From NCBI GenBank assembly GCA_013387205.1, contig WARV01000001.1, positions 86 to 64,085 of the forward strand: DNA of 64,000 nucleotides, written 5' to 3'. Made by a program: the position numbers and the translations under genes. This DNA comes from Patescibacteria group bacterium (GTDB taxonomy: Bacteria; Patescibacteriota; Doudnabacteria; UBA920). The notes under the pieces were generated by a model. The model saw only the letters and a list, made by a program, of their open reading frames with translations. It was not told the DNA's origin and did no database searches. This document shows, piece after piece, positions 4,916 through 37,164 of this stretch (the first letter of the stretch is position 1; the number at the start of each line of letters is the position of its first letter).

Positions 4916-5155
4916 CCTCATAATCCGGCCAAAAGCCGCCAGAATGACTGGAAAAGTTTCTCTTACTTTGCTTAAGGGAAGTTTTTACAGTTTTTATTAT
5001 GATACTAAACCGACATAACTGCTCTAACCCCGCATTTTATGGTAAAGAACTAAGGTTTGTGATAGACGGGCAATTAATTAATGATCCAGAGCTAAGAATA
5101 GAAGTTCCGGCTGAATTTGATTTTATACAGGGCTTATTTCCTAAGGATTACAAAA

Positions 5156-5329: not shown

Positions 5330-5550
5330 GGTTTGGGAAAAATAGGATAGGTAAGACATTACGGACTTTTAGTAAGTTTAAAGAAATGCGAGCATATAAA
5401 TGCGATAGATGTGGAAAGTATCATTTAACAAGCCAAACAAGATTTAATCCAGTATATAATAGGTGATTTATGTGGTATAAGATTTTGATTCCCATACTAG
5501 CAGTAATAATCGGATGGATATTAGGAAAATTAAGTTTAAAAAATTAGTTT

Positions 5551-5964: not shown

Positions 5965-6251
5965 TATTTACAGGGGTTTTATATACGCGTCGCATAAGGT
6001 GTCTTGGGCGACGCGGGATAATTTGCCCTAGGACAAGAGTAAATACCTGAAACGGCTAATGCATCAGCTTTAGGATAAACGCTTAACCTGGGGGCAAATA
6101 ACAACAATAGGGGGGTATACAAACGTTCACCGGGTGGGGGAACCCCGAATGTCCTTATAGGGACTCCAGTATATAAGTATCTGTCCCCAAATCTAATTTA
6201 ACCCCTAAAAGATTGTAACGCAAGCGTAACAATGTAACGATTCCGTAACAT

Positions 6252-6464
6252 ATGGCGAATATCGATTGTGATAATTGTGGTAAGAAGCTAATTAAGACTG
6301 TATTTTGTTGCGATAAATGCCGAGTTTATTATTTCCGTAAAAACCATAGTTCCATTGTTGTAACAAAACGTAACGTTACAGAAGTAACTGATTCATTCAA
6401 AGAGCGTAAACCATTGAAGGCTTGTAGTAAGCATGGAGGTTCATTCACCTGTGGCTGTTCCTGA
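6252..6464 (+). CDS. Small Cys-rich protein (CDNCGKK...CDKCR)
   Basis: ORF track entry. Preceded by a GTAAC(G/A) repeat cluster. Confidence 0.35.
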   Translation: MANIDCDNCGKKLIKTVFCCDKCRVYYFRKNHSSIVVTKRNVTEVTDSFKERKPLKACSKHGGSFTCGCS

Positions 6465-6590
6465 ATTTTTTTAAAAGCATAAAAAGGCTTTAACAATCTA
6501 ATCACCACATCAATTGGCAACCGTGTACACGTTGCGAATGTTGTGGTGACGTTCGCAGCATATACACCGTTATCAAGCGGTGTATTTTTT

Positions 6591-8012: not shown

Positions 8013-8013
8013 T

Positions 8014-9858
8014 ATGGCAGATTCAATGCCCGCTTGGAAAGCAAAAGCAATAGATATTGTCAGAAAAGAAGTTTTAGCTTGGGAACAGCCGATTTTTTGG
8101 ATTGTCCCCAAGGTGGCTTTTAACATGAGGCTGTTGATTGAACAGTTAATTAAAAATTACTGGGGCGTATTTGATGAACCCGTTGACCCGACTTCGGGAA
8201 AAGAAAAAATTTGGATGCACTTAACTAGGACGATGGTAGAATCCCAGGTTGAGGACACCATTATAAAATCTAAGGATGTTAATTTTAGGGCTAAAACTGA
8301 TATCGCAATCCCCTATAAGCCTTTAGTAAAGAACATTGTCAAAAACCACTTAGATAAAATTTATTTTGGCGATAAATTAAGGGATTTGGTTAGGGATATG
8401 GGCATGACCGGAACAGCAGTCTGGAAAATGCATCCTGACTTCGGCGACAAGCTTTTAAGAAGAGTGAGTGTCTTAAATTGTTACATTGACCCCTCAGTTG
8501 ATTCTATACAAGACGCCGAAAGGTTTACGGAACGCGCGGTGCAGACAATTGATGAAATAAAGGGGATGAAATCCTGGGAAGACACTGGTAAGTTAGCAGG
8601 CTCTAACCAAGTTCATAGGCAGGATTCTGTTGTATCAGGTGCTAACACTTCTCCTGAAGGATTGAAATTCGCAGAAGTCTTTGAAACCTGGGGAAAAATT
8701 CCGAAATGGGTTTTGAACAAGGAAGATAAGGGGGATGATTATGATATGGAAGAGGGACAGATTGTTTGTTCTAGGGATAACGGAACTTGGAATTTCCACT
8801 TTCTAAAAAAGAATACAACTAAAGATTCTACCGGGAGAATTATCAAGCCTTACGAAGAAGCGTGGTTTTCCAAGATTCCGGGCAGGTGGCATGGCGTTGG
8901 CCCTCCTGAAACTCTTTTACACCTACAGATTTGGTCAAATATTTCAGCAAACATTTACGTCAATCGGGAATTTATTTCTTCTCTTGGCTTGTTTCAGATT
9001 AGAAAAGGTTCAGGCATAACCCCGCAGATGATATCTAAGCTCGCCGCAAACGGAGCTATTCAGGTTAGTCAAATCGACCAGGACATTAAGCAGATACAAA
9101 TGGACGAACCTGGTCCGGCATTTTACAACAACCAGCAGTTTATTTACGAACAGGCGCAGAAGTGGACAAGGACATTTGAGATTGCCGGAGCTGACGATAT
9201 GCCAGCTTCCACTCCCGCAACCATAGGGGTAATCAAAAACCAATCCGCGCAAACCGCTTCTTCTCTTGTAAAAGAGGGGACTGGGATTTTCCTGCAACGC
9301 TGCCTTGGTCGCCATCTGATGCCAAATATTTTCAAGGATATAAAAATTGGAGATATCATCCACGCAACTGGGGACACATCCATGCTCCAGGCTTTGGACG
9401 ATGCGATCGTCTTTGACCTGTTAGCAAAACAACTGGATGAAATGGAAGCAAAGGGTGTAATAGTGACTCCGGAAAAGGTAGAACTTGAAGAACAAAGAAT
9501 TAGGCAGTTCTACCAAAAACAAGGTAATCAGAGGATTATTAAATATCTCAAAAACTTGGATTGGGCGGAATACGACGTAGAGCCATTTATTACCAACGAA
9601 GACTTTGACAAGGGAACAATGACGCAAAATCTCTTAACTGCCTTACAGATTGCCCCTGAATACAAAGACCAGATACTTAAAGAGTTGTTTGACTTAATGA
9701 ACCTTCCGCCATTGAAAGCCCCAACTCAAATGCAAGGGACGATGGCTGCACCGCAGCAGCAACCGATGATGAATCCAACTGAAAGGATGGCGCAGAACAA
9801 CACAATGGAACAGGGTGCGGCAGTTGGCAGGCCTATTGGGGGTGTAAATGTTAGATAA
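8014..9858 (+). CDS. Putative portal protein
   Basis: A 614-aa ORF immediately downstream of terL, in the canonical position. No diagnostic motif was verified. Confidence 0.55.
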   Translation: MADSMPAWKAKAIDIVRKEVLAWEQPIFWIVPKVAFNMRLLIEQLIKNYWGVFDEPVDPTSGKEKIWMHLTRTMVESQVEDTIIKSKDVNFRAKTDIAIPYKPLVKNIVKNHLDKIYFGDKLRDLVRDMGMTGTAVWKMHPDFGDKLLRRVSVLNCYIDPSVDSIQDAERFTERAVQTIDEIKGMKSWEDTGKLAGSNQVHRQDSVVSGANTSPEGLKFAEVFETWGKIPKWVLNKEDKGDDYDMEEGQIVCSRDNGTWNFHFLKKNTTKDSTGRIIKPYEEAWFSKIPGRWHGVGPPETLLHLQIWSNISANIYVNREFISSLGLFQIRKGSGITPQMISKLAANGAIQVSQIDQDIKQIQMDEPGPAFYNNQQFIYEQAQKWTRTFEIAGADDMPASTPATIGVIKNQSAQTASSLVKEGTGIFLQRCLGRHLMPNIFKDIKIGDIIHATGDTSMLQALDDAIVFDLLAKQLDEMEAKGVIVTPEKVELEEQRIRQFYQKQGNQRIIKYLKNLDWAEYDVEPFITNEDFDKGTMTQNLLTALQIAPEYKDQILKELFDLMNLPPLKAPTQMQGTMAAPQQQPMMNPTERMAQNNTMEQGAAVGRPIGGVNVR

Positions 9859-10156
9859 CGAAACCAAACAGACAATCGCCGATACGTCACTTTTGGCAAC
9901 CTTGAAAGATAACGACGCATGGAATTTGGCTAAAGAAAAACTTTTAGAGAAACTGTCTTTGCTTAATTCTGTTCAGTCTATACCAGTAGCCAATCGGACT
10001 TTTGAAGCTATCGGACAAGACACGGCAAATCGCACCCATGTCATCTCTGTCGTATTGGAATGGCTGGATGAAGTTGAGAGTTCGCCTGAAGTAGCTAAGG
10101 CCAACCGTGACGCCATTACCCCAAAGGATTCATTAAAATTTGTGATTCGAACTTAG
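9848..10156 (+). CDS. Hypothetical head-module protein
   Basis: ORF track entry. Overlaps the portal stop. Confidence 0.4.
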   Translation: MLDNETKQTIADTSLLATLKDNDAWNLAKEKLLEKLSLLNSVQSIPVANRTFEAIGQDTANRTHVISVVLEWLDEVESSPEVAKANRDAITPKDSLKFVIRT

Positions 10157-10249
10157 GAATTTTGGACTAACCCCTCTAACTGGGGGGTTTCCCCAAACTT
10201 CTTATGTAAAAGTCGAAAGAAGTTCTTAGCAAACGTAATCTAATTTCAC

Positions 10250-10807
10250 ATGGAAGAAGAAAACACACAAACCCCAGCGGCCAACCCTGGCGAAGAAGCT
10301 CCGACCAACGTTGCTTCACCAGAAGGCGCGCAGAATGGTGGTTCCAATCCAACTACCACCCCTGCCTTGAGTTTAGAGGAAATCAATTCTTTGACGGGTC
10401 ACAAGTATTCAAACCTTGATGACGCCAAAAAGGGATTGGTCAATCTGAAGTCTGCCGTTGGGAAAAAGGAAATACCAGTGGACAATCCTGCTTTGGTTAA
10501 GCAGGTCAAAACCCTGGAATTTTTCCTTGAGCATCCCGAATACAAGGATGCAAAATCTTTGATAACCAAATTCGGGGACGACCCGAACGAGGTGATTAAA
10601 GACCCGGTTTTCCAACAGGCTTATAAAGGCATACAGGCTGTGGTAGAAACTGAAAAACAGAAAACGACCATAACGTCCACCTCCCGTGTTGCCACTCCGC
10701 CGTCCGACGAAGCCCAAAAAGCTTTTAAGGCCGCGCAGGATTCAGGCCTCCCCGAAGATTGGGGAAGCGTGATTATGCAAAGATCGGGACTGGACATTAA
10801 GGAATAG
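10250..10807 (+). CDS. Acidic low-complexity protein, possibly scaffolding-like
   Basis: Position between portal and capsid. Acidic and Pro/Ala-rich. Inference only. Confidence 0.35.
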   Translation: MEEENTQTPAANPGEEAPTNVASPEGAQNGGSNPTTTPALSLEEINSLTGHKYSNLDDAKKGLVNLKSAVGKKEIPVDNPALVKQVKTLEFFLEHPEYKDAKSLITKFGDDPNEVIKDPVFQQAYKGIQAVVETEKQKTTITSTSRVATPPSDEAQKAFKAAQDSGLPEDWGSVIMQRSGLDIKE

Positions 10808-10890
10808 CAATGGCAATAGGTTTAGGTTAAATTAGACCTATTAAAATCGAGCCATATGCTGGAAAACCCTTAGAATCTTTAACCCTAACT

Positions 10891-11427
10891 ATGGAACAGT
10901 TTAAAGAATTGGGCAATCAGCAGGAAAGGCTTTCTCTTGTCTCTTATCTCTTTGGAATTATAGACGGCGAAGGTAGTTATCAGCTAGCTTCTGACATAAA
11001 TAAACATGGCCGTAGATATTTTTCCCCACAACTTAATATAAGCAACGCAAATCCAGGAATAATTGATTATTGCATAAAGGCTTTCAAACGTTTAGACGTA
11101 GCATATTATGTCTGGACGCCAAAAAAACACGGCAAAGAAAAATGCGTTTTATATCGATTGTGCGTAAAGGGAATAAAGAGAATGGCAAAATTTTTAGCGG
11201 TTGCGGCTTATTTCCCTCACGCTAAAATACGCCAAGCAAAGTTGTTAAAGAATTTTTGTGACTTGCGATTATCAATTGACCCAAAGAAAAAAGCCAGTGG
11301 TCACGAAATCACATACACAAATGCAGAAGTCGGATTCAAGAATGAACTTGGCCGACTAAACAAGGAATACAACACAAGAGGAAGAATCCTCAGAGACTAT
11401 ACGCTCGACTCTCTAAAAGAGAGATGA
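10891..11427 (+). CDS. LAGLIDADG-family homing endonuclease
   Basis: Motif YLFGIIDGEGSY (LAGLIDADG) with a single-motif size of 178 aa. Confidence 0.7.
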   Translation: MEQFKELGNQQERLSLVSYLFGIIDGEGSYQLASDINKHGRRYFSPQLNISNANPGIIDYCIKAFKRLDVAYYVWTPKKHGKEKCVLYRLCVKGIKRMAKFLAVAAYFPHAKIRQAKLLKNFCDLRLSIDPKKKASGHEITYTNAEVGFKNELGRLNKEYNTRGRILRDYTLDSLKER

Positions 11428-11503
11428 TATAGTCCGACCTTCCACGAAATTGGAAGATTAACAAAACGTAATTACCTACCAAGACCCTACCCGCCGGGAA
11501 GAT

Positions 11504-12346
11504 TTGATTGATGTGGTAACCAACGTGTCCGTCCAGGATACTCCACTCTTGTCAAACTTGCCGATGGGAACTGCCGCTAAGTCAACTTTGCACGAATATG
11601 CTACCGACAGCTTCGCCGATTATACCGATTCAGCCACCGCTGAAGGTTCCGGTGCTTCCGTTGTCGATTTGACTGCTCCGACACGCTCTAACAATGTAAA
11701 CCAAATTTTCAAGGATGACGTCAATGTCTCCAATACGGAAATTGCGGTTAATGGAGTGGTTGAGCCGTTCAAATACCAGCTCGGCAAAGTCATGGTGCAA
11801 CAGGCGAAAAATATTGAATTGGCTTTCATGGCCGGTTCAAGAAACTCCGGTAACTCCGGTGTCGCCCGCCGCCTCCAGGGTGTCATTAACGCAATTACCA
11901 CCAACGCTACTACCAGAGCTTCTGGAACTAGCTTGGGTGAAGTTGCTTTAAACGACATCTTGCAGATGATTTGGACTGGCACAGGTAAAGTCGCTACTAA
12001 CATTTATGTCGGTGCGACCTTGAAGAGAGATATCACCTCTCTGTCCACCACTGTTACCCGTTTCCAAGACGCTGCTTCAAAGCGTTTAACCAAACCGGTT
12101 TCAGTGTACGAATCAGATTTCGGTGTCCATGAAATCTACCTCCACAGGAACGTGCCGACTGGCGCGAACAACCTGACGTTGGTAGCTATCAACCCCGAAT
12201 TCCACCGCAAGTCCTACTTGCGCCCGACCCAGACCGTGCAGTTGCCGCCTGATGGCGATAGAACTCGCGCGATGATTGTTACCGAAGTCACCCTTGAACA
12301 CAAGGGAGAAAAGACTGGTGCAGTAGTCGGTGGATTCACCTCTTAA
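11504..12346 (+). CDS. Putative major capsid protein
   Basis: Position after the scaffold-like gene. Followed by a hairpin at 12367-12395. 280 aa. Assignment by synteny only. Confidence 0.45.
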   Translation: MIDVVTNVSVQDTPLLSNLPMGTAAKSTLHEYATDSFADYTDSATAEGSGASVVDLTAPTRSNNVNQIFKDDVNVSNTEIAVNGVVEPFKYQLGKVMVQQAKNIELAFMAGSRNSGNSGVARRLQGVINAITTNATTRASGTSLGEVALNDILQMIWTGTGKVATNIYVGATLKRDITSLSTTVTRFQDAASKRLTKPVSVYESDFGVHEIYLHRNVPTGANNLTLVAINPEFHRKSYLRPTQTVQLPPDGDRTRAMIVTEVTLEHKGEKTGAVVGGFTS

Positions 12347-12410
12347 TAACTTAGTTGTTATTTGTTCGCCCCCCTTATCCCAATTGAGGGGGACGACAAT
12401 TGGGAAACAA

Positions 12411-12782
12411 ATGAAAGAACAAGTGATAGGGAAAGAGCATTGGAACGTTGATAACGGGGATTTTAAGGGATTATGGGCTATCAATCCGGAAATGGCTCAA
12501 GGTGCTGACATTTGGCAGAAGATTGATGAGATTGTGATTGCCTACTCAAAATTAAATCCTGGCGAAGTTTTCTTGACCATACTGGAGAATAAAGCAGAAT
12601 CCGCAAGGCTCATGCACGAAACAGGGAAAACCAAGGGCGGAACGATGAGGTACGGTGCAGCATGGCCTCTGGGATTGTGGGTAAAGATAAAGCAACTCGC
12701 GCCGGACTTGTTTTTAAACAAGAAAAACTTCCATAAACTCTTAAGGAAATATCCAGGATTTACTATCGCAAAAAAAATATGA
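12411..12782 (+). CDS. Hypothetical protein
   Basis: Internal ATG at 12411 after the capsid terminator hairpin. Track ORF 12330..12782. Confidence 0.4.
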   Translation: MKEQVIGKEHWNVDNGDFKGLWAINPEMAQGADIWQKIDEIVIAYSKLNPGEVFLTILENKAESARLMHETGKTKGGTMRYGAAWPLGLWVKIKQLAPDLFLNKKNFHKLLRKYPGFTIAKKI

Positions 12783-15109
12783 AAACACTCTCTCTTTGTT
12801 TAATAGTTACCGCTGAAGATTTTAAAAAAGCCCTACCTGCCATAGAACAAATTAAGCCATTTGTAAATGAAGTTTGCATTACGGTCACGGACAGGACGGA
12901 AGGGTACGAAGATGGTGATAAATTAAAATTTTCTTACTTCAAATGGATTAATGATTTTGCCGCCGCTAGAAATTATAATTTTTCCCAAAGTTCTTGTGAC
13001 TGGATATTGTGGCTTGACGCTGATGACACTTTGGCTAATCCCGAAAAACTAAAAGGGTTAGTCCAATATGCGGAAGATAATCGGGTAGAAGGATATTACT
13101 TTTTATACAAATACGATTTTGACGCAAGCGGAAAATGCATAAACGAACACTGGAAAGCGCAGCTTCTTAAAAACAACGGGCATTTTAAATGGAAAGGCGC
13201 GATACACGAAGACCCTATCCAGGAACGCCCTGCAAGATGGGCGAAAGCTTACGATTGTGTTCGTATTCACCACTCCGACCACAAAAGGGGGAAGGAATCA
13301 AGCGAGCGCAATATGCGGATTCTGCTAAAGGAAAGAGAACGCGACCCCAAAGAGCCGAGAACCCTATTTTATCTAGGACGTGGATATATTGAATTGGAAG
13401 AATACCAAAAAGCCATTGACTGTTTAACTGAATACTTAGCCTTATCGGGATGGGATGACGAAAGGTATGAGGCAAGGCTGTTGATTGGAAGCTGTTTCAT
13501 GAGGACAAAACAGCATGAAGAAGCCTTGGGTTGGTATAACTCGGCTATTTTGGAGAAGGAAGAGTATCCAGACGCCTATATCCAAAAGGGCATGGCCTAT
13601 TTAAAGCTTGAAAAATGGGGACAAGCGCTTTCAAATTTTAAAACTGCCTTGGGTATGAACATCCCGGACGCTTCCACTTATTTCAACCCCATGCTTTACA
13701 AACGTGACTTATTCCTTGGAATCGCTTTTGCGTATTTGCAGATTGCCGAACTCGACCAGGCTTTGCCAGCAGTGCTGCAAGCTGAAAAAGCTGACCCAAA
13801 ATACCAAGAAACTTTGGATTTAAAAAAGATAATAGTTGAATTGAAATTTAAACACGATACTTCTAACCATTACGCCCGGTTAGCAAAATATTTAAAAGAC
13901 AAGAACCAGGAAGACAAGATTTTACCCTTATTATCTTCTGCACCGAAAGAACTGTTAGACGACCCTATTCTTCTTTCCTTGAAGTTCGCTTACCAGAAAC
14001 AATACACTTGGCCGGAGAAGTCAATTGCCGTTTATTGCGGTCCAACGGCTGAAAGCTGGACACCGGATTCACAGAATAACGGAGGGATAGGCGGAAGCGA
14101 AACCGCAGTAATCGAACTGACGAACAGATTGGCGGAAGATGGCTGGAATATCACAGTTTATAACCAATGCGACGCCCCGCCGGAAGGAAAGAGATACAGC
14201 AAGGTTTTATATAAAAATTACTGGACGTTTAACGTAGATGATGAATTTGATGTTTTGTGGGTTTGGAGATTGCCAGAACTTTTTGACTACGACTTGAATG
14301 CCAGACTGAAAATCTTAGATTTACATGATACCATGTCACCGGCAGATTTTACGCCTGAACGGGTGGCGAAAATGGACAAGATTTTTGTTAAGACAAATTT
14401 TCACCGTTCACTATATCCGAAAATCGCTGATGACAAATTCGTAATTGTCGGAAACGGGATTGATTTGAAGAGGTTTGAAGGAAAAGCAGAAAAAGACCCG
14501 CACCGATTCATGTATTCTTCCACACCAAACAGGGGGCTTGATACTCTGTTAAAGATGTGGCCGAAGATTAAAGAAAAAATCCCCGAAGCGACCCTGCATG
14601 TTTACTACGGTTGGAACACCTTTTACAAACTGGAGAAAAATAACCCAGAACGGATGATGTGGATGAAAAAAGTGCAGGAAATGATGAAACAGGACGGGGT
14701 AGTAGATCACGGGCGAGTTGGACAAAAAGAACTTGCCCAGGATATGTTAAAAACTTCCTTTTGGCTCTACCCCACTGACTTTCCGGAAATTGACTGCATT
14801 ACGGCCAAGGAAATGCAGGCAGCGGGAGTATATCCCATAACTTCTGGTTACGCAGCATTAGAAGAAAGCCAGATAAGTGGCATGAAGGTCAGGGGCGACA
14901 CTTACGACCCTGAGTGGCAAAAAGAATACATCAAGGAAGTGGTTAGTTATAAGGATGCAGAAATTAACCACGAGCATATTAAAACATTAAGTAAACAATT
15001 TTCTTGGGACAATGTAGCCCAAGTATGGAAGGAGCAATTAAATGGCGAAAGTTACAATAAAGAACTTGGGCGAGATTCAGCAAGCACCGAAGGAGAAATT
15101 TCAAATTAA
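12779..15109 (+). CDS. Multidomain glycosyltransferase: N-terminal GT2 (GT-A, WLDADD DxD motif), central TPR repeats, C-terminal GT1/GT4-like (GT-B)
   Basis: N-terminal LIVTAED...WILWLDADDTL, TPR-like repeats around residues 200-330, and a C-terminal region resembling group-1 glycosyltransferases. Confidence 0.7.
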   Translation: MKTLSLCLIVTAEDFKKALPAIEQIKPFVNEVCITVTDRTEGYEDGDKLKFSYFKWINDFAAARNYNFSQSSCDWILWLDADDTLANPEKLKGLVQYAEDNRVEGYYFLYKYDFDASGKCINEHWKAQLLKNNGHFKWKGAIHEDPIQERPARWAKAYDCVRIHHSDHKRGKESSERNMRILLKERERDPKEPRTLFYLGRGYIELEEYQKAIDCLTEYLALSGWDDERYEARLLIGSCFMRTKQHEEALGWYNSAILEKEEYPDAYIQKGMAYLKLEKWGQALSNFKTALGMNIPDASTYFNPMLYKRDLFLGIAFAYLQIAELDQALPAVLQAEKADPKYQETLDLKKIIVELKFKHDTSNHYARLAKYLKDKNQEDKILPLLSSAPKELLDDPILLSLKFAYQKQYTWPEKSIAVYCGPTAESWTPDSQNNGGIGGSETAVIELTNRLAEDGWNITVYNQCDAPPEGKRYSKVLYKNYWTFNVDDEFDVLWVWRLPELFDYDLNARLKILDLHDTMSPADFTPERVAKMDKIFVKTNFHRSLYPKIADDKFVIVGNGIDLKRFEGKAEKDPHRFMYSSTPNRGLDTLLKMWPKIKEKIPEATLHVYYGWNTFYKLEKNNPERMMWMKKVQEMMKQDGVVDHGRVGQKELAQDMLKTSFWLYPTDFPEIDCITAKEMQAAGVYPITSGYAALEESQISGMKVRGDTYDPEWQKEYIKEVVSYKDAEINHEHIKTLSKQFSWDNVAQVWKEQLNGESYNKELGRDSASTEGEISN

Positions 15110-15174
15110 ATATCATAGCGGAATTACAACCTTAGAAGATGTGATCAACCAGCTAAACGAACATTTTAAGGAAA

Positions 15175-16059
15175 ATGCCTAAGCTAAAGATTTCTTTTTT
15201 GTGGGATGGAGTGCGACTGCATTACGGCCAGAGATTTAAAGACGGGCTGTTTATGGCTCTTCAACACCTTAAGGAAAAGCATGAAGTTCGGATGTTTGAA
15301 CCTGACGAGATTGATAAAATAAATGGCTTTCGACCTGACGTGTTGCTGTATTGGGGTGCGTTGTGTGAGAATTCTAAACCCCTAGTTGCCTCTTACCCTT
15401 ATAAAAAAGCGATTTGTTTTGCCGGTGGACCGATTGAGCCAGGTAATGTGGACGGATTTGACCTTTACTTTACCGAATCAGAACAAAATGAATGGGAGTT
15501 TAAGGCTCTGAATAAACCATACATGAGGGCGTTTGGGGTAAATGAGGAACTGTATAAACCTTTACCATTAGAGAAAAAATATGACGCAATTTTCTTCGGC
15601 ACTCATGCGCTTTGGAAAAGGAATGACTTGTTTGCTAAAGCGGTTAAAGACAAAGGCGTGTCGATTGGCATTTTCCAAGACCACGAAAAAGAATGTTACC
15701 AAATCCCGCAAGCCGAGGGTTGTGAAGTCCATGACGAATTACCGAGGGAAGAAGTCGTTACGTTCATCAATCAAAGTCATATTGCCTTAAATACTGCTAA
15801 TTTCTGGGATGGGGGACAAAGGATGACCCTTGAGGCTATGGCTTGCGACGTTCCGCCGATAGTGATGAGCGATTCACCAAAAAACATGGAATATGTGGAT
15901 GAATCAGGGGTGGGGTTAGTAGTTGAACCAAACATAGAAGCGATAAGGGAAGCCATCGGAAGATTAAAAGGAACACAGGCGGGAAGAAAATACATTTTAT
16001 CAAAATGGACATCTAAACATTACGCTCAAAATTTAGAAAAAGGGCTATTACAATTATGA
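15175..16059 (+). CDS. Glycosyltransferase group 1-like (GT-B C-terminal-domain-like) protein
   Basis: Weak GT1-like C-terminal signature (...TLEAMACDVPPIV...). Embedded between the other glycosylation genes. Confidence 0.4.
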   Translation: MPKLKISFLWDGVRLHYGQRFKDGLFMALQHLKEKHEVRMFEPDEIDKINGFRPDVLLYWGALCENSKPLVASYPYKKAICFAGGPIEPGNVDGFDLYFTESEQNEWEFKALNKPYMRAFGVNEELYKPLPLEKKYDAIFFGTHALWKRNDLFAKAVKDKGVSIGIFQDHEKECYQIPQAEGCEVHDELPREEVVTFINQSHIALNTANFWDGGQRMTLEAMACDVPPIVMSDSPKNMEYVDESGVGLVVEPNIEAIREAIGRLKGTQAGRKYILSKWTSKHYAQNLEKGLLQL

Positions 16060-17126
16060 TTCCTATTTCCAAACCATCAGCCGACGACCAGACCAAACAA
16101 GATTTATTGGAAGTTTTAGATTCGGGCTGGTGGGGCAAGGGGCCAAAAGTTGAAGAATTTGAAAAAAAGTTTGCCGAATATGTTGGACAGCAATATGCCG
16201 TTGCTGTTAACTCCGCCACTTCTGCCCTGGATTTATGTTTAAAAGCTGCTGATATTTCCGGCGGCGAACTTTACACCACTCCATTGACTTTTGTTTCTGA
16301 CGCCATTGTGGGGGAGTGGAATAACATGACCGTGACGTTTGGAGATATCGACCCGGAAACACTCTGTTTAGACCCTAAAAGTTTTTATCCATCTAAAAAC
16401 ACTAAGGCGGTAATTGCAGTGGATTCTCATGGAAGGTTGGCTGACATTGATGGTTTTAGGAAAAAGTTTAACGGGTTGATTATTGAAGACGCCGCCCATG
16501 CCATGTACACCCCAGGAGCAGGAAAAGGTGATATGACCGTTTGGTCTTTCCAGGCAGTAAAGACTTTGCCTTGCGGTGACGGCGGCATGATTACCACTAA
16601 CAATAAGAAATATTACGACAAGTTAAAATCCTTAACTTGGTTAGGAATTGAAAAGCCAACATTCTCCCGTGTTTCAGACAAAGGCTACCAATGGGATTAC
16701 GATATTTTCCAATCAGGCATAAAAGCCTATATGAATGATTTAACGGCGGTAATTGGCCTTGGACAACTTAGAAGACTTGATGAAATGAACGCCTGGCGCA
16801 GGGGCATACAAGACCAATATAACGAAGCGTTTAAAAACCATCCACATATCAAGATTCCTGCTTATTCCCATACAGTTCAATATTATACGCCAAGATTTAA
16901 AGACCGTGACGAGCTATGCCAATACTTAGCTAGTAAAGGGATATGCAGCTCTGTCCATTTTAAACCTTTAACAGAGATGGATTACTGGCGCAAGCATTCC
17001 CGATCTGCTCCCATTCCTAATGTCTATCGAATTTGGCCTGAATTATTATCCCTGCCTGTGTATTACGGTTTAACTGGAGATGAAGTTAATCACATTATTA
17101 AAACAGTTCTTGATTTCTATGGCTAA
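16056..17126 (+). CDS. DegT/DnrJ/EryC1/StrS-family PLP-dependent sugar aminotransferase
   Basis: LDSGWWGKGPKVEEFEKKFAEYVG, IIEDAAHA, SFQAVKTL (PLP Lys) and GDGGMITTN. 4-nt overlap with the upstream gene. Confidence 0.85.
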   Translation: MIPISKPSADDQTKQDLLEVLDSGWWGKGPKVEEFEKKFAEYVGQQYAVAVNSATSALDLCLKAADISGGELYTTPLTFVSDAIVGEWNNMTVTFGDIDPETLCLDPKSFYPSKNTKAVIAVDSHGRLADIDGFRKKFNGLIIEDAAHAMYTPGAGKGDMTVWSFQAVKTLPCGDGGMITTNNKKYYDKLKSLTWLGIEKPTFSRVSDKGYQWDYDIFQSGIKAYMNDLTAVIGLGQLRRLDEMNAWRRGIQDQYNEAFKNHPHIKIPAYSHTVQYYTPRFKDRDELCQYLASKGICSSVHFKPLTEMDYWRKHSRSAPIPNVYRIWPELLSLPVYYGLTGDEVNHIIKTVLDFYG

Positions 17127-17700
17127 ACTGTCGGTCATTATTCCTCATTACCCATACGGTGACGAAATTAATAATAAGTTGGATGAATGTAGGAGCAAAC
17201 TGGAAAATTACGACGAACTTGTATTAGTTGTTAATCAGGGAATTGGTTTTGCAAAAGCAGTGAATTTGGGTTTTAAGATGGCAAAAGGTGATTTTCTGCT
17301 TTTAGTGAGTAATGACGTAATTTATACGGGCGGTGATATTCGGGATTTATGTGACCCAGAAGCAGTGACTTGTCCAGTAGTGAACGGAAGAAGGCAGGAA
17401 TTTTACGGATGCACCTTTTGCTTGCCGAGATGGGTATATGAAAAGATATGTGCCTTAAGAGGTGGAAAACAATTTTTAGATGAACAATTTGATATTGGTT
17501 TTTTTGAAGATGACAATCTAATTATGGAACTTCGCCAACTAAATATTCCTATGCGCTCAGTTAAAACAGTTTCCGCCGTAACCCAAGGCAGCCAGACTAT
17601 GAAGATTTTTGGTTCCGCTGACCCTTATAACAACAACCGCGCGAGATTTATTAAGAAATGGGGTGTAAGCAGTTCTAACCCGATTAAATATGAAGATTAG
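17119..17700 (+). CDS. Family 2 glycosyltransferase (GT-A)
   Basis: LSVIIPHYP, AKAVNLGFKMAKGDFLLLVSNDV and FFEDDNL. Start ATGGCTAA overlaps the DegT stop by 8 nt. Confidence 0.75.
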   Translation: MAKLSVIIPHYPYGDEINNKLDECRSKLENYDELVLVVNQGIGFAKAVNLGFKMAKGDFLLLVSNDVIYTGGDIRDLCDPEAVTCPVVNGRRQEFYGCTFCLPRWVYEKICALRGGKQFLDEQFDIGFFEDDNLIMELRQLNIPMRSVKTVSAVTQGSQTMKIFGSADPYNNNRARFIKKWGVSSSNPIKYED

Positions 17701-18349
17701 CGTAATTTGTGTTACCAACCGTAAAGGCGCAATAGCTTTCTTAAAGAAGCAGTTAGATAAACAGACCTTCAAAGACTTTGATGTTATCGTAGCAGATGAT
17801 AGTGGTGACGAAGATTTTTTCGAGCAGTTCAAGCCACGCCAAAAAAACGAAGGCGATGTTTGGAACTTAAACAAGGCATATAACGACTGCTTGAGCAAAG
17901 TAACTGGGGAACTAATTGTTTTTTTACAAGATTTTATTGAAATTCCCGCTAACGGATTAGAAAGATTTTGGGAACTTTATCAACTTTACCCAAATGATTT
18001 AATTACAGGTTGCGGACATAAATACGAAAACGGCAGGATTGCAGAAACGGACAGTAGGTGCTTTGGCGACAGAAAACTTGTTTCTTCTGACTGGACTTTT
18101 TATGAACTAAATTGGGCTTCTTGTCCCGCAAAAATTGCGCCAAGGTTTGAAGAAGATATGGACAAATTCTACGGTGGGGAAAATATCGTGTTTGCTTTAA
18201 AAGCCCATTTAAAAGGTTCGGAAATCTGGCTAGACCGGATAAACGAATGCAAGGGGCTTGCCCATAACGACAGGCCAAGTGACTGGGAAGATTTACACCA
18301 TAATAAGAATAATCGTTTAAATGACAAAATTAAGAGTTTAATTATATGA
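17690..18349 (+). CDS. Family 2 glycosyltransferase-like protein
   Basis: MKISVICVTNRKGAIAFLKKQLDKQTFKDFDVIVADDSGDEDF (GT-A N-terminus). Overlaps the upstream stop. Confidence 0.6.
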   Translation: MKISVICVTNRKGAIAFLKKQLDKQTFKDFDVIVADDSGDEDFFEQFKPRQKNEGDVWNLNKAYNDCLSKVTGELIVFLQDFIEIPANGLERFWELYQLYPNDLITGCGHKYENGRIAETDSRCFGDRKLVSSDWTFYELNWASCPAKIAPRFEEDMDKFYGGENIVFALKAHLKGSEIWLDRINECKGLAHNDRPSDWEDLHHNKNNRLNDKIKSLII

Positions 18350-19077
18350 ATTTTTCAGACATCCTCAATGAAATAACGTTTTTTACAGGAGCAGACAAGG
18401 GAAACAACACCCCTGCTAGTTTTGTTGATTACCCGATCACTGACCGGACGGCGCATGTTAACAATGCTTTAGAGGAAACTGTCACTGAAATACTGGACTC
18501 CCAGGATGGATGGGATTGGGATGACACAAACAACACCGATTATCCGATTGCGACCACCAATTTAGTTGCCAATCAACAAGATTATTCTTTCCCGGCTTCA
18601 CTGAAGATTTTAAAAATTAAGAGGGTGGAAGTCTGTTTTGATGGGGTGAATTGGAAAGTTGCTCAGCCGTTCGATATCAGCCAAAGACAGCTAGCGACAG
18701 ATACCACTTCCATATCTAATGATTTTTCCACGTTATCGCCCTTTTACGACCCACAGGCTAACTCAGTCTTTCTTTACCCGATTCCGGCCACTAACGTAAC
18801 GGGCGGGTTAAAGGTCTGGTTTTCCCGTGAACCTAGTTTATTTATTACCACCGACACCACCAAAATTCCTGGAATTGATACTCCTTGGCACTCCCGTTTA
18901 TCAATGAAGGCATCTTTGAAATACGCAGTAGCTAAAAACCTACCCCACTTAATAAATACTTTAAAACCACTTTTGGACGAGCAGGAAATGAAGATGAGGG
19001 TTTACTATGGTTCAAAAGAAAAAGACAGAAAATATCAATTTACTTCAGCTTATAACAATAATACTTATGGAAGATAA
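18346..19077 (+). CDS. Hypothetical virion structural protein
   Basis: ORF track entry. Overlaps both neighbours within the late operon. Confidence 0.45.
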   Translation: MNFSDILNEITFFTGADKGNNTPASFVDYPITDRTAHVNNALEETVTEILDSQDGWDWDDTNNTDYPIATTNLVANQQDYSFPASLKILKIKRVEVCFDGVNWKVAQPFDISQRQLATDTTSISNDFSTLSPFYDPQANSVFLYPIPATNVTGGLKVWFSREPSLFITTDTTKIPGIDTPWHSRLSMKASLKYAVAKNLPHLINTLKPLLDEQEMKMRVYYGSKEKDRKYQFTSAYNNNTYGR

Positions 19078-20828
19078 TGGCTAAAACTGACTTAACAATT
19101 CATAACTGGCAACTTGGCATCAGCGAATCGCCGCATACGGGATTTACTGACATGAGAAACGTGGATGTGATTACCCGTCCTGGCTCAGTGCGGCTCCAAC
19201 CAAAACTTCACCGAGTTATTCCAAATCCGACTACGAGTACTTTTACCGCCGACGCTTCTACTGATATTTTGACTGGAACAAATTTATCTACAACAATTAA
19301 CGGAGTTGGGTATTTTGGTGTTAGGGCTGTTACCTTTTCTTCTACCGGCACGTTACCGGCTGGTTTGTCACCAGCAACCCCGTACCACCTGACAATTGCA
19401 GGAGATGTAACGCATTACAAGGTTTCTACCACACTAGCTAACGCTAATTCCGGGGTTTATGTAAACATAACTGACGCGGGAACAGGAACGCATACCTTAA
19501 CTACGATTGACCCTGGCACAATGCAGTACATTAAGGATGACGGCACTGGCAATAACGTTTATGCGGTAGATAATAATTGTCGGGTATGGCAAAAAAACTC
19601 TGATTTATGGTATCTGGTGTCTGGTAATACGTTGACCTTAGGTTCTGGAAACGGGTTGGCTGTTTATAAAGGTTATTTATTAGTATTTCGCAATAACGCG
19701 ATTGACGCGTTAAATTTGTCTACCTTAGCTTGGACTAACTCAGGAACAGGCACTTGGAACAATCCTTTAAACGGCGGAACAGGAATACACCGAACTTGCG
19801 TTGGTCAGGACGATATCCTGTATTGGGGGGATGCTGACAGTTCTAGTAATCCATATATCGGAAGTTTGCAGCAAAACTCCGGAAAGGTTTTCGACCCAAC
19901 TGACGCAACCACTTACACCATAACCGCCAAGGCATTGTATCTGCCAATATACAAAACCGTAAACTGGCTGGCAGAACTTGGGACAAATTTAATGATAGCA
20001 ACGGCAGGAAAAGAAATTTATCCTTGGGACAGGCACTCGGCTACTTTTGGACTGCCAATTCTTTGCGCTGAACAAAACATATCCACCATAACCAATATTA
20101 ATAATGAGTTATACGTCACCGCTGGGAACAGGGGAAATGTTTATAAATACAACGGTTATTTATTGCAACCATTTAAAATTTTTCCAAAACATCTTTTAGC
20201 GACTGATTCAAGTACGGTTTCTGTTGGTGCTGCCGTGTCCCATAACCGAGAACTGCTATTTACTATACAAGCTGTTGGGGTTTCAGGGGTGTGTAGTCTA
20301 GACACCATAACAGGGGCGTTGGTCATAAAAAATTCTATTTCCACTAATTCGTACGGAACACTTAACGCCATAACACTTCCCGCTCTTTATTCAGATGGAG
20401 TGACTTATTTGGTTAGTTCTTGGGATAGGGATGTCTCAACTCCTAATGATCGGGGGCTTGATTCTTCCACGGCTGGCTCATCATATATTTTCCCTTCCGG
20501 ATATATTGGTTACGTTATTGGGCCATTAATTGACGTAGGTAATGCAAAACAGAAACGGACTTTTACAGAAACAGAGGTCATGTTCGACAAATTCTTGGCA
20601 ATGGGCGAGGGAGCCAAGGTATATCACCGCACTAATTCTACAACAACTTGGAATTTGCTTGGCACGTTTGATTACTCAACCTACGGGGCTGATGATTCTA
20701 TGAACTTGGTTAAAAACGCTTCCAATTGTGATTCCATCCAGAACAAAATCGAGTTGACTGCTAATTCCAATCAATCAACGCCTAACGTGAAATCTGTAAC
20801 CTTACGAGGAGGAGCTGTCGATGCCTAA
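19077..20828 (+). CDS. Putative tail protein (Thr/Gly/Asn-rich, possibly repeat/beta-propeller-like)
   Basis: Size, composition and position in the late operon. Confidence 0.4.
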   Translation: MAKTDLTIHNWQLGISESPHTGFTDMRNVDVITRPGSVRLQPKLHRVIPNPTTSTFTADASTDILTGTNLSTTINGVGYFGVRAVTFSSTGTLPAGLSPATPYHLTIAGDVTHYKVSTTLANANSGVYVNITDAGTGTHTLTTIDPGTMQYIKDDGTGNNVYAVDNNCRVWQKNSDLWYLVSGNTLTLGSGNGLAVYKGYLLVFRNNAIDALNLSTLAWTNSGTGTWNNPLNGGTGIHRTCVGQDDILYWGDADSSSNPYIGSLQQNSGKVFDPTDATTYTITAKALYLPIYKTVNWLAELGTNLMIATAGKEIYPWDRHSATFGLPILCAEQNISTITNINNELYVTAGNRGNVYKYNGYLLQPFKIFPKHLLATDSSTVSVGAAVSHNRELLFTIQAVGVSGVCSLDTITGALVIKNSISTNSYGTLNAITLPALYSDGVTYLVSSWDRDVSTPNDRGLDSSTAGSSYIFPSGYIGYVIGPLIDVGNAKQKRTFTETEVMFDKFLAMGEGAKVYHRTNSTTTWNLLGTFDYSTYGADDSMNLVKNASNCDSIQNKIELTANSNQSTPNVKSVTLRGGAVDA

Positions 20829-21072
20829 TATGATACCTGACAATCCCCTTAATAATCCACCGCAACCACGTTCCGACATAATGCCTTTACATAATCACGA
20901 CGGACAGACTTCGCCACGCATTAGTCCTGAAAATTTATTGGGCTTTCCTCTTATGACAGCCGTACCAACCGACAACGCACCAGACAATATTATTCGCTTA
21001 GCATACATTTCTGGCACTTATTATTTATACGCAAGAATTAATAAAACCTGGAAACGGGTAACATTAACTTAA
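20821..21072 (+). CDS. Hypothetical small late protein
   Basis: ORF track entry. Overlaps the upstream stop. Confidence 0.35.
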   Translation: MPNMIPDNPLNNPPQPRSDIMPLHNHDGQTSPRISPENLLGFPLMTAVPTDNAPDNIIRLAYISGTYYLYARINKTWKRVTLT

Positions 21073-21077
21073 ATTTT

Positions 21078-23279
21078 ATGGCCAATCGGTTTACAAACTT
21101 TTTTACTCAAACCATTCCTAGCATTGGCAAGGCCATTAGTACTGCTTGGAATGCCCCCAGCAATATCGGAAGTACTATAGGTGCTACGGCTAAAGATTAT
21201 TTCTTTAACCCATCACAGCCATCACTAGGGCAATCTTACCAGCAAGCGACAGCTAAGCCAATGTCTTTTCCAGTTACTCTCAATCAACAAGGGGGTTTTG
21301 TAAGCCCAAACCAACAGCCTACTGGTGGTGTTTCTGGCCCGCCAAGGTTATATTCCACGATTAACGGCCAAAATTTTGACCAATACGGTGAACCTTTTAA
21401 TAATGGCAATACTGGGAATATACAAACCGCTTCCCAAAATACGCAAACTGCTAATTTAGGAAGTAACGCCGGACAATCTATTAACTTTAACGGCCAAACA
21501 GTCGGGGGGTATGATTCTTCCGGTTCTCCTTTTGTGTTCGGTGGAGTACAACAAACAAGTCCTGCCACAAATTTTGGAGGAACTCCGTTAAACAGCACAA
21601 TTGATTCAACATCACTAGGCAATTCCACTACTAGGGCAGATATTAACTCCAGGATAAGTAAAAACCTAAATTCTTTAGATACGATGTTTTCCAGCCTTTC
21701 ATCCTTGGGTACGGTTCCCCAAGCAGAATTGGATATGCAACAGAAAGCCGCCCAATCAGCAGCAGCGGTTACTGGATTAAACGCCCAGGCCGCAGGGCTT
21801 TACAATCCTGATAATCAGGCAATTGCCTTACCTTTTCTACAGGGGCAAGCCCAAAGTAAATTAGTATCAGCACAATTACAAAACCAAATTAATCAAGCCC
21901 AACTTGCTTATATGCAAGGGAATAGGCAGTTTGCTTTTAACTCTGCTTCTACAATTTACAATGCGGCAAGGCAGAACCTGATGGACACTTTACAGATTTA
22001 CACTCAAACCGCACCACAGAATTTAGCTACAAATTACAACCCGACTACTGGTGCTTTAAACGCAGTGATGCGTAATCCTTTAACCGGCGAGCAATATACT
22101 GCTAATTTAGGAAATATTGGCGCACAAAGGACATTTACATCTACCAATATCGCAACTGACACTTACACTGGCGCATTGACTTTTGTTGGCACAATGTCAG
22201 ATGGAACGGTTGTTCAGCAACCCATTGGCGGCGGTGCTTCGTCTTTCCAGGGTGGTTCTTACAATATGGGTCAATCTATGCAGGGTGGATTTGGTAATAA
22301 TATAACGGGACTGACTACTCCGGCTGCCGTAAATAATAACCCTGGTAATTTGCGCGACCCACAAACTGGAGCATGGCAGGTCTTTAGTTCACCGCAAGAG
22401 GGATTCCAGGCTTTAATGAGTGACATCCAAGGCAAGCAAACAGGAAACACCAGGACTGGTTTAAATGGAAATTCCACCTTAGCACAGTTTACTTCGGTTT
22501 ACGCACCTGCTTCTGACGGCAATAATCCTGCTGGTTACGCACAGTCTATCGCCAAACAATTAGGAGTTTCGGTTAATACTCCAATAGGGCAAATCCCATC
22601 TGCTTCTTTGGCTGCTGCCGTAGCACAGCATGAGGACGGAAGATACTGGAACGCTATTACATCCGGCGTATCTAATGTTTCAGCTAACGTTCCTCCGGTA
22701 GTGCAGAAATATTTGGAAACTTTAAATAATATTCCTAATAGTGAATATATAAATTCCAATCGCGTCCCGGATAATTTGAAAAATGCAATTAAGAATATGG
22801 CTGGCGGTGTTGTTCCAGTTTTAACCGATGCGGAAGTATCTTCAGTTAAGAGTATAGCCACTACTGCCACGAACCTGGAAACCATGAGGGATTTGTCCAA
22901 CAAAGTTCTGGGTTCTGGTGCTTTGGGCAGGGTAGGGTCTTCATTTACTAATTGGTTTGATAAAACTTTCCAACCCAATACTCCCGATTCTCAGACAGTA
23001 GCAAGATTCAGGTCGTTTAGGGAAACCGCCGTAAAAAACATTCAGGCTTTAGCTGCTGGTGGGTCTGGGTTAAGAATAAACCAGGCTGAAATTGATACTG
23101 CCACAGCCAATCTTCCTACAATTTACGATAGTAAGGAAGTAGCTAATGCAAAAATAGACCAAGTGTTGTCATTCTTGCAAAATACCTTACAGCAAGTTTT
23201 ACCACATGCGGCCTTGGCAAGTAACCAAACACAAAACTCTACTCAAATTTTAGACGCCATCTTATCTCAATATAAATAA
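21078..23279 (+). CDS. Large Gln/Asn/Gly/Thr-rich virion protein (tail or internal protein)
   Basis: 733 aa, low complexity, in the late operon. Confidence 0.4.
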   Translation: MANRFTNFFTQTIPSIGKAISTAWNAPSNIGSTIGATAKDYFFNPSQPSLGQSYQQATAKPMSFPVTLNQQGGFVSPNQQPTGGVSGPPRLYSTINGQNFDQYGEPFNNGNTGNIQTASQNTQTANLGSNAGQSINFNGQTVGGYDSSGSPFVFGGVQQTSPATNFGGTPLNSTIDSTSLGNSTTRADINSRISKNLNSLDTMFSSLSSLGTVPQAELDMQQKAAQSAAAVTGLNAQAAGLYNPDNQAIALPFLQGQAQSKLVSAQLQNQINQAQLAYMQGNRQFAFNSASTIYNAARQNLMDTLQIYTQTAPQNLATNYNPTTGALNAVMRNPLTGEQYTANLGNIGAQRTFTSTNIATDTYTGALTFVGTMSDGTVVQQPIGGGASSFQGGSYNMGQSMQGGFGNNITGLTTPAAVNNNPGNLRDPQTGAWQVFSSPQEGFQALMSDIQGKQTGNTRTGLNGNSTLAQFTSVYAPASDGNNPAGYAQSIAKQLGVSVNTPIGQIPSASLAAAVAQHEDGRYWNAITSGVSNVSANVPPVVQKYLETLNNIPNSEYINSNRVPDNLKNAIKNMAGGVVPVLTDAEVSSVKSIATTATNLETMRDLSNKVLGSGALGRVGSSFTNWFDKTFQPNTPDSQTVARFRSFRETAVKNIQALAAGGSGLRINQAEIDTATANLPTIYDSKEVANAKIDQVLSFLQNTLQQVLPHAALASNQTQNSTQILDAILSQYK

Positions 23280-23280
23280 T

Positions 23281-24981: not shown

Positions 24982-25032
24982 TTATTAAGATAACTAATGA
25001 AGCTAGTGGCATAAATTTAGTTACTAAATACC

Positions 25033-37123: not shown

Positions 37124-37164
37124 TTTATTTAAAACGATCTTTTAATTTTTATTTCAAAAAAATA

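Follow-up and report, generated by a model that had tools for sequence, protein, structure and literature searches.

Why should a tailed phage keep a set of sugar-transfer genes among the genes that build its head? The question is raised by a stretch of 64,000 nucleotides (nt), hereafter the window, from contig WARV01000001.1 of a Patescibacteria group bacterium (Doudnabacteria; assembly GCA_013387205.1, positions 86 to 64,085), in which a prophage carries at 12779-18349 five intact, co-directional plus-strand open reading frames (ORFs) that make up a sugar-transfer and amino-sugar cassette. Our reading, to which we assign a probability of roughly 0.6, is that the cassette carries out late cytoplasmic O-glycosylation of the phage's own virion proteins. 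It is drawn from the combination of (i) a priming enzyme that appears protein-directed through its tetratricopeptide repeats (TPRs), (ii) soluble extending enzymes, (iii) variable tailoring genes, (iv) coupling to the head genes, and (v) adjacency to the capsid gene. That the capsid specifically is the target is a more tentative proposal, for which we would not offer even odds.

The first cassette gene (12779-15109) encodes a protein of 776 amino acids (aa), hereafter the large glycosyltransferase, in which Pfam and an AlphaFold model recognize a fusion of GT-A, TPR and GT-B domains. Behind it lie genes for a 294-aa GT-B family glycosyltransferase (15175-16059; Glycos_transf_1, 5.5e-09, 36.2 bits against a cut-off of 26.4), a 356-aa pyridoxal phosphate (PLP)-dependent aminotransferase of the DegT/DnrJ/EryC1 family, hereafter DegT (16056-17126; PF01041, 6.5e-74), and two small GT-A (GT2) glycosyltransferases of 193 aa (17119-17700) and 219 aa (17690-18349). 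The Glycos_transf_2 (PF00535) scores of these last two, 24.7 and 27.9 bits, are marginal, barely exceeding the cut-off of 23.3; the 193-aa enzyme additionally matches a PHROG galactosyl transferase family (phrog_29879, 2.4e-4). Its ORF was listed from 17080, but start analysis favours an ATG at 17119, which overlaps the DegT stop by 8 nt and is most likely the true start. An earlier note, made from the letters of the window alone, had proposed these five ORFs, which are present at the coordinates it gave, and its domain calls were upheld by hidden Markov model (HMM) searches. Strong HMM E-values, and a gene order repeated across dozens of independent contigs, show that the cassette is not a chance assemblage.

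The gene junctions are tight, though not exactly as first described. Overlaps of 4-10 nt had been noted, and those between the 294-aa GT-B and DegT genes (4 nt), between the DegT and 193-aa genes (8 nt), and between the 219-aa gene and the gene behind it (4 nt) conform to this; the two small GT-A genes overlap by 11 nt, however, and a 65-nt gap separates the large glycosyltransferase gene from the 294-aa GT-B gene, the sole non-overlapping junction of the cassette. Nor does the cassette directly follow the capsid gene, as had been supposed, for a conserved gene encoding a 123-aa protein (12411-12782, plus strand) intervenes and overlaps the start of the large glycosyltransferase gene by 4 nt (ATGA). 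Apart from the 65-nt gap, overlaps of 1-11 nt run from this gene to the one beyond the cassette's downstream neighbour. That neighbour had been expected to be a tail gene; it is instead an SU10-type head-tail adaptor gene (18346-19077, plus strand; PF24175 SU10_adaptor, 1e-07), which forms the downstream edge of the cassette. The location in the late head operon, remote from the integrase gene at 34003-34890, stands as proposed. The cassette genes have the same GC content (0.38-0.42) as the adjoining phage genes, and none of the five proteins, with the corrected start used, nor the adjacent 123-aa protein contains a membrane-helix-like segment.

Domains and relatives of the large glycosyltransferase

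To what kind of acceptor would such an enzyme transfer sugars? The earlier note had called the protein a GT2-TPR-GT1 fusion and had recommended a structure prediction; Pfam and the AlphaFold model (built on 30 homologues; predicted local distance difference test score, pLDDT, 90.8) both uphold the GT-A + TPR + GT-B order. In the model, a GT-A domain occupies aa 1-168, an all-helical region aa 170-405, and a two-Rossmann GT-B domain aa 412-756. The GT-A (GT2) domain (12779-13282) has a Pfam GT2 match at aa 48-123 (34.2 bits against 23.3), and the helical-repeat domain (13286-13993) matches several TPR families at aa 190-295 (TPR_16, 7e-12). The GT4-like GT-B domain (14012-15046) is called from the model fold together with Pfam matches at aa 437-723 that stay below the cut-offs (Glyco_transf_4, 20.6 against 28.5; Glycos_transf_1, 16.7 against 26.4); homologues carry PF13439 and PF00534 in this part. 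One PHROG family (13126) spans aa 49-357. Invariant in 30 homologues are a DxDD motif (D80, D82, D83), a GGxGGSE motif (aa 436-441) and E670 of an E-X7-E-type motif, and both catalytic domains thus look functional.

When the family profile was compared with all PDB sequences, the first match was the glycosyltransferase domain of GmaR (22ao, 2.6e-32), followed by SunS (7msp/7msn, 1.8e-22) and a ThuS-like protein. A Foldseek search with the model placed SunS/ThuS at the top (7msp: TM score 0.70, root-mean-square deviation (rmsd) 3.1 over the GT-A and helical parts), with SPINDLY and OGT, which join TPRs to a GT-B domain, ranking after them; in both profile and Foldseek comparisons, the enzyme's TPR part corresponds to the repeats of OGT and SPINDLY. 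Because these closest characterized relatives all glycosylate proteins or peptides directly, in the cytoplasm, we read the large glycosyltransferase as protein-directed.

The likeness of its N-terminal half to SunS/ThuS, in sequence and in fold, raises the alternative of a glycocin-type system, in which a SunS-like enzyme would modify a nearby secreted antimicrobial peptide as at the sublancin locus of SPbeta; SunS is, moreover, itself prophage-encoded. Yet the protein scores only 41.7 bits against the SunS family model TIGR04195, for which the cut-off is 350, and the cassette has no Cys-containing precursor, ABC exporter/peptidase or thiol-disulfide oxidoreductase. The adjacent 123-aa protein does not supply the peptide, as its sequence contains no cysteine and it has a counterpart in phages without a cassette, and neither the extra GT-B domain, nor the four further enzymes, nor the head-operon context fits such a system. 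With the family score so low and both peptide and exporter missing, we reject a glycocin system, which strikes us as scarcely credible.

DNA is the classical substrate of phage glycosyltransferases, and work cited in PMC12619734 has documented diverse glycans on it, which makes hypermodification of DNA against restriction, i.e., T4-type glucosylation of modified bases, another candidate; the prophage also encodes a nucleotide diphosphohydrolase-like domain (PF18909) at 32632-33120. However, neither the phage ORFs of the window nor the annotation of MW202524 includes a hydroxymethylase or thymidylate-synthase-like gene, the TPR domain and the homology to GmaR and SunS indicate protein acceptors, and the genes sit in the head module rather than the replication module. 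We regard DNA glycosylation as highly improbable and have rejected it for want of a base-hydroxymethylating enzyme in those two gene sets.

The large glycosyltransferase also varies in form among relatives. Three homologues (P0008, P0080 and P0106) are interrupted by inteins of 230-350 aa that carry homing-endonuclease domains and are all inserted between the C and the following I of the sequence FPEIxCITA, within the E-X7-E-type catalytic motif of the GT-B domain (around residue 673 of the window protein). In a distant subgroup (L031, at 9953-13314, and L021, L026, L032, L034, L039, L042, L101, L103, L111 and L127), a break near residue 561-575 separates the two GT-B halves of the enzyme, and the C-terminal half is fused to a homologue of the window's 219-aa GT-A enzyme. 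The split and fused form is an alternative domain arrangement that recurs, rather than a single frameshift.

The capsid gene as conserved neighbour

Which protein, then, might be the acceptor? Gene order among relatives points towards the virion. At least 110 full-length homologues of the large glycosyltransferase are listed, at 34-60% identity and many of them on contigs of 37-47 kb, and at least 278 stretches in IMG/VR encode relatives. Our IMG/VR synteny count took in 72 loci for which 3 kb or more of upstream sequence was available: in 55 of them, the large glycosyltransferase gene is preceded on the same strand by an SU10-type capsid gene, and the median distance from the end of the capsid ORF to the start of the enzyme ORF is 497 bp, i.e., one small gene. 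The same arrangement is present in about 26 loci from genomes and assemblies, where the order runs portal, scaffold, SU10-type capsid, a gene of ~120 aa, large glycosyltransferase, variable enzymes and adaptor; an exception is MW202497, where the enzymes lie between the terminase and portal genes. The capsid-adjacent position persists where the capsid proteins are only 25-37% identical to that of the window, and it is also kept in complete circular phage genomes; a Dehalococcoidia prophage with another capsid family (L024; Phage_capsid_4) displays the order capsid, small ORF, large glycosyltransferase, GT-B gene. The gene-order comparison recommended in the earlier note thus reveals a capsid-adjacent position that is conserved across related phages.

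Relatives lacking the cassette indicate how it came to lie there. In Bjorn, phiM5 and three Manatee Spring phages (MW202710, MW202481 and MW202462), the capsid gene is followed by a gene of ~100 aa and then by the adaptor gene, from which we take the cassette to have entered the head module between the latter two genes; adaptor orthologues likewise sit 3' of the cassettes in relatives. The 123-aa protein of the window, which is 32-41% identical to the product of the same-position gene in close relatives, is the positional counterpart of that ~100-aa gene product, and for this reason probably belongs to the core of the head module, not to the cassette. Among 1.84 billion proteins, 59 cluster representatives match it, and it shows a weak hhalign match to Bjorn gp64, with no matches in Pfam, PHROG or NCBIfam; its AlphaFold model (pLDDT 88) has no PDB match and, in BFVD, matches uncharacterized phage proteins only.

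The cassettes of relatives share a core and differ in the remainder. Orthologues of the 294-aa GT-B enzyme (39-61% identity) occupy the same position, those of the 193-aa GT-A enzyme occur in related cassettes, and those of the 219-aa GT-A enzyme (24-63% identity) are present in most related loci, making it the most widespread accessory after the large glycosyltransferase. Other accessory genes vary, comprising S-adenosylmethionine-dependent (SAM) or FkbM methyltransferases, epimerase/dehydratases of the short-chain dehydrogenase/reductase (SDR) type, a cytidylyltransferase, and DegT aminotransferases of two unrelated types. Two loci (L035, at 8073-9662, and L002, i.e., MW202497, at 35734-37302) have a GroEL/Cpn60-family chaperonin gene inside the head/glycosylation module. 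One of the nearest relatives of the window's head module (L011/L015; OY969418.1, 5374279-5396525), with a capsid 61% and a large glycosyltransferase 59% identical to those of the window, lies in a 9.5-Mb chromosome labelled Acidobacteriota, and binning has assigned still others to Saccharibacteria, Peribacteria, Gallionella, Dehalococcoidia and DPANN archaea. This would mean that the lineage crosses phyla, or else that many of the bins are contaminated.

The conserved position bears on a further explanation, namely, that the cassette glycosylates a protein outside the virion, such as a host type IV pilin, a receptor appendage or a non-structural phage protein, in the service of superinfection exclusion or host takeover. 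Homology to GmaR, SunS and OGT-type enzymes applies equally to such a target, GmaR modifying flagellin in a comparable way. Hosts of the candidate phyla radiation (CPR) rely on pili, and pilin-like and SLT functions are encoded in the host part of the window (35933-37123, minus strand, a single protein with a type IV secretion pilin-like domain and an SLT transglycosylase domain). A quarter of the viral loci, furthermore, have no recognizable capsid gene beside the homologue. Against this, a target of that kind leaves adjacency to the capsid gene, including that of a second capsid family, unexplained; an exclusion function would be expected in an independent moron, not in genes translationally coupled among head genes; and the cassette is linked to no candidate host target. 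We consider a non-virion target improbable.

The capsid gene is itself interrupted. It extends over 10810-12346 (plus strand; PF17236 SU10_MCP, 1.3e-62; phrog_1328, major head protein), with exon 1 at 10810-10822 (ATGGCAATAGGTT, encoding MAIG(L)), exon 2 at 11469-12346, and between them a group I intron of ~646 nt (~10823-11468) that holds a homing-endonuclease ORF (10891-11427). The Rfam model Intron_gpI scores 35.5 bits (E 3.8e-07), under its gathering score; the last nucleotide of exon 1 is U and that of the intron G, and splicing yields a protein of 296 aa with the N-terminus MAIGLITYQD, both as in relatives. Two or three ORFs likewise make up the capsid genes of L020 (5772-7418), L038, L045, L060, L065 and L067, and in L020 a homologue of the window endonuclease (29% identity) lies between the pieces, which suggests that capsid-gene introns are recurrent in this lineage.

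Amino-sugar supply and the proposed function

What sugar would the aminotransferase provide? DegT belongs to the PF01041 family, matching it over aa 9-351 of 356 at 249.7 bits (cut-off 19.8), and aligns with ArnB (1mdo) at 1.2e-45. The PLP-binding lysine is kept (SFQAVK, aligned to SFHAIK of ArnB), as is an EDAAHA motif. Among the sugar aminotransferase equivalogs tested by NCBIfam cut-off (PseC, ArnB, LegC, DesI and WecE), the nearest models are PseC and ArnB, whose scores of 223 and 181 fall short of the required 423.5 and 631, as does that of WecE (91 against 435). The closest relatives, at 64-68% identity, are very numerous and occur both on long contigs of Paceibacterota, Nomurabacteria and Parcubacteria and on phage-sized contigs. 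In one Paceibacterota genome, a 68% identical homologue lies within a Wzx/Wzy surface-polysaccharide locus (in order, Bac_transf, Wzx-like, RmlA-like, dTDP-sugar isomerase, RmlB-like dehydratase, GT2 and DegT, with Wzy later), a context suggesting that the substrate is a dTDP-keto-6-deoxyhexose. As no dehydratase or nucleotidyltransferase homologue is present in the window, the phage would depend on a keto-sugar made by its host.

The amino-sugar step is not peculiar to this prophage. An IMG/VR locus (L060) encodes a 63% identical DegT in the same order of large glycosyltransferase, GT-B, DegT and GT-A. At least 10 other cassettes encode a DegT of a second, unrelated type (23-30% identical), and in at least six of them an SDR-type (RmlB/epimerase-like) gene lies directly 5' of it. 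As sugar aminotransferases recur in at least 13 related cassettes, the step is better viewed as a recurrent tailoring option; a cassette including it had been called unusual, a description that, within this lineage, does not survive this count or the number of IMG/VR stretches given above. One locus from an 18-kb contig (L054, 1-16157) consists almost entirely of co-directional genes for glycosyltransferases, methyltransferases, two DegT aminotransferases (one of them 67% identical to that of the window) and SDR proteins, with HNH/AP2 endonucleases interspersed, and looks like an extreme version of the cassette.

Kinship with a host polysaccharide locus brings in the main rival explanation, i.e., host-surface remodelling or lysogenic conversion, whereby the cassette would act via lipid-linked intermediates and host Wzx/Wzy proteins so as to alter adhesion between CPR cell and partner or to block superinfection. 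In its favour, DegT shares 64-68% identity with Paceibacterota genes, including the one in the Wzx/Wzy locus just described, and the element is a prophage with an integrase. Two surveys count the glycosyltransferases of CPR phages as host-surface-remodelling auxiliary metabolic genes, and read O-antigen sugar genes likewise (PMC11310336, PMC12911398). Yet the cassette encodes no phosphoglycosyl transferase, flippase, polymerase, Gtr-type membrane protein or membrane helix; it lies in overlapping frames within the head operon, 15.6 kb from the integrase gene; the capsid gene remains its neighbour in complete circular genomes and with capsids down to 25% identity; and the closest characterized relatives of its key enzyme modify proteins or peptides, not lipids. 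On balance, we judge host-surface remodelling unlikely.

Under virion glycosylation, the cassette genes would be transcribed together with the head genes and translationally coupled to them, and would thus be expressed late. The TPR domain of the large glycosyltransferase would hold a folded or nascent structural protein, most likely the major capsid protein, while its GmaR/SunS-like GT-A domain primes the acceptor by transferring a first sugar from a nucleotide sugar onto a Ser/Thr side chain and the fused GT-B domain adds a second. The 294-aa GT-B and the two small GT-A enzymes would then elongate the glycan. DegT would convert a host-made keto-deoxy nucleotide sugar, probably a dTDP-4-keto- or dTDP-3-keto-6-deoxyhexose, into the amino-deoxy donor for one of these transfer steps. 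As the accessory set changes from phage to phage, so would the surface glycan. Fibre proteins downstream had been put forward as targets; the capsid is the better candidate, because it is the capsid gene that is the conserved neighbour.

The capsid proteins themselves offer one weak pointer. Mycobacteriophage glycans are reported at C-termini (PMC12619734). Most capsids of phages with a cassette terminate in G-[FY]-x-[ST], that of the Dehalococcoidia prophage ends in TTTRSNAS, and a 12-20-aa loop present in cassette-free capsids is absent from those of cassette-bearing phages. Ser or Thr occurs within the last four residues in 16 of 20 cassette-bearing phages versus 1 of 5 cassette-free ones, a contrast that phylogeny confounds, the cassette-free capsids all belonging to one clade. 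A C-terminal Ser/Thr tail as acceptor site is thus suggestive, and we do not claim it.

This confounding is one of several points that weigh against virion glycosylation. The virion glycans are here a prediction from genes. The 68% identity of DegT to a host-type gene of a Wzx/Wzy locus fits the host-surface explanation, and the missing membrane helices are not decisive, given that peripheral glycosyltransferases of lipid pathways also do without them. In the IMG/VR count, 17 of the 72 loci, mostly the remotest homologues and contigs of jumbo size, have no upstream capsid gene, their upstream ORFs giving no capsid match by Pfam or PHROG, and in two of these 17 a replication initiator lies upstream. 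Cellular homologues of the large glycosyltransferase occur in non-phage contexts, e.g., in Chitinophaga. A tblastn search with the large glycosyltransferase, the 294-aa GT-B and the 219-aa GT-A enzyme against 50,697 GenBank phage records matched no cultured phage, the only full matches being Manatee Spring metagenomic phages (for the 219-aa enzyme, a single one). A promoter and terminator scan of 5000-24999, finally, found fewer sites than in shuffled sequence and is uninformative on transcription.

Taken to its full extent, the proposal would be that an uncultured, podophage-like lineage of ~40 kb, infecting CPR and other phyla, coats its capsid with strain-variable, complex O-glycans by means of a GT-A/TPR/GT-B primer and swappable tailoring genes, with an aminotransferase taken from the surface-polysaccharide locus of the host supplying a host-type amino-deoxy sugar, and hence a host-like glycan, in the present case; as a joint statement, this is doubtful. 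Were it true, glycosyltransferases counted as auxiliary metabolic genes of CPR phages would largely be virion-building genes, and phage capsids would show serotype-like diversity. Self-glycosylation by the cassette would by itself make virion glycosylation widespread among environmental phages, by way of a TPR-guided fusion of two glycosyltransferases and including amino-sugar synthesis, and would change how the CPR-phage glycosyltransferases now assigned to the host surface are read. The conserved pairing of capsid gene and enzyme offers a simple experimental handle on unculturable phages, and a soluble enzyme that glycosylates a self-assembling shell could serve the glyco-engineering of particles. 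We found no description of such a cassette in the searchable literature.

The surroundings of the cassette are those of an integrated phage. Upstream lie genes for the small terminase (5551-5964), the large terminase (6543-8012) and the portal (8014-9858), with a scaffold-like gene between these and the capsid gene; 3' of the adaptor gene are large virion-associated proteins, a collagen-like fibre (26178-27203), a CHAP lysin and the tyrosine integrase (34003-34890). Cellular genes begin at ~35.9 kb (GluRS, a WecG-NUDIX fusion, def, fmt, YceG, QueA and others), and this GluRS shares 65-74% identity with proteins labelled Patescibacteria group or Candidatus Doudnabacteria. We conclude from the adjoining cellular genes and the GluRS identity that the element is a prophage of a CPR bacterium, the type of host that had been suspected. 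The prophage further carries a metallophosphoesterase gene (31778-32536). The PF18909 match at 32632-33120 (2.2e-25) is to a dATP/dGTP diphosphohydrolase N-terminal domain, which is associated with manipulation of nucleotide pools by phages; no PurZ-like gene was seen in the window. A minus-strand ORF of 239 aa (25033-25752), with no family match and a moderately hydrophobic N-terminus, breaks the plus-strand late operon between virion and fibre genes and may be a moron. The WecG/TagA glycosyltransferase fused to a NUDIX domain is a host protein (40121-41716, minus strand).

Comparison with known systems

The nearest relatives in sequence and fold each share part of the large glycosyltransferase. 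GmaR of Listeria is a flagellin O-GlcNAc transferase in which the glycosyltransferase domain is followed by TPRs (PMC9638930). The large glycosyltransferase resembles the L. monocytogenes protein in its N-terminal GT-A domain of ~180 aa and its TPRs, and would likewise place sugar directly onto a polymerizing structural protein; unlike GmaR, it has a GT-B domain in place of the linker and MogR-binding antirepressor domains, and it is encoded in a phage head operon. Judged by domain content, with similar glycosyltransferase and TPR parts and no antirepressor, it falls outside the GmaR-type bifunctional proteins and would work like the glycosyltransferase-TPR part of GmaR without being its orthologue. 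SunS/ThuS (SPbeta prophage yolJ) share the GT-A and helical repeat domains and are the top structural matches, whereas the extra GT-B domain, the low family score and the lack of peptide or export genes set the window's enzyme apart from the SunS family, the likeness being one of fold only. With OGT and SPINDLY (GT41), the resemblance is at the level of architecture, i.e., a TPR superhelix followed by a GT-B domain that acts on protein Ser/Thr; global superposition is poor (TM ~0.27, rmsd ~22), and the large glycosyltransferase differs in having a GT4-like GT-B domain and an additional GT-A domain.

Among phage systems, the Gtr cassettes of P22, SfV and SfX are also prophage-encoded glycosyltransferase systems. 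They comprise the membrane proteins GtrA (flippase), GtrB (bactoprenol glucosyltransferase) and GtrC, lie beside the integrase gene or attachment site, and are expressed in the lysogen. By contrast, all proteins of the present cassette are predicted to be soluble, and the genes belong to the head operon, 15.6 kb upstream of the integrase gene; with no membrane-helix-like segments among its products, the cassette is not of the Gtr type, and we have rejected Gtr-type conversion for lack of membrane proteins. The earlier note had weighed Gtr-type seroconversion against virion glycosylation and preferred the latter, a preference that adjacency to the capsid gene, the missing membrane segments, and homology to GmaR and SunS/ThuS reinforce.

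Outside bacteriophages, giant viruses glycosylate their virions, as in the capsid of chlorovirus PBCV-1 and the fibrils of Mimivirus, where viosamine is made via the DegT-family protein L136. The combination of virus-encoded glycosyltransferases with a DegT aminotransferase is common to these viruses and the window's prophage, where it would likewise build virion glycans independently of the host glycosylation machinery. The giant viruses are, however, eukaryotic viruses with complete nucleotide-sugar pathways, whereas the present element is a tailed phage of the 40-kb class with the aminotransferase step only.

To our knowledge, self-glycosylation of phage particles has so far been demonstrated in mycobacteriophages only. 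These glycosylate their own capsid and tail-tube proteins, at the C-termini (Freeman 2023, as cited in PMC12619734, PMC12363180 and PMC11600133), and in Che8, Corndog and Myrna, as described in those sources, phage-encoded glycosyltransferases and tailoring enzymes (methyltransferases) decorate virion proteins. The present cassette also encodes its own glycosyltransferases, and decoration of the virion is predicted from them. No homology was found by tblastn between the three enzymes searched and Che8 gp110 or Corndog gp38, and the same three match no actinobacteriophage among the 50,697 records. The earlier note had placed mycobacteriophage glycosyltransferases among structural genes; those of cluster F1, however, are near the 3' end of the genome (PMC11256854), unlike the present genes, which lie between the capsid and adaptor genes. 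The GT-A/TPR/GT-B fusion, the amino-sugar aminotransferase and the CPR host are further differences. Self-glycosylation of phages is thus already known, and what is new here is the architecture of the enzyme, its location, the hosts, and the added amino-sugar step.

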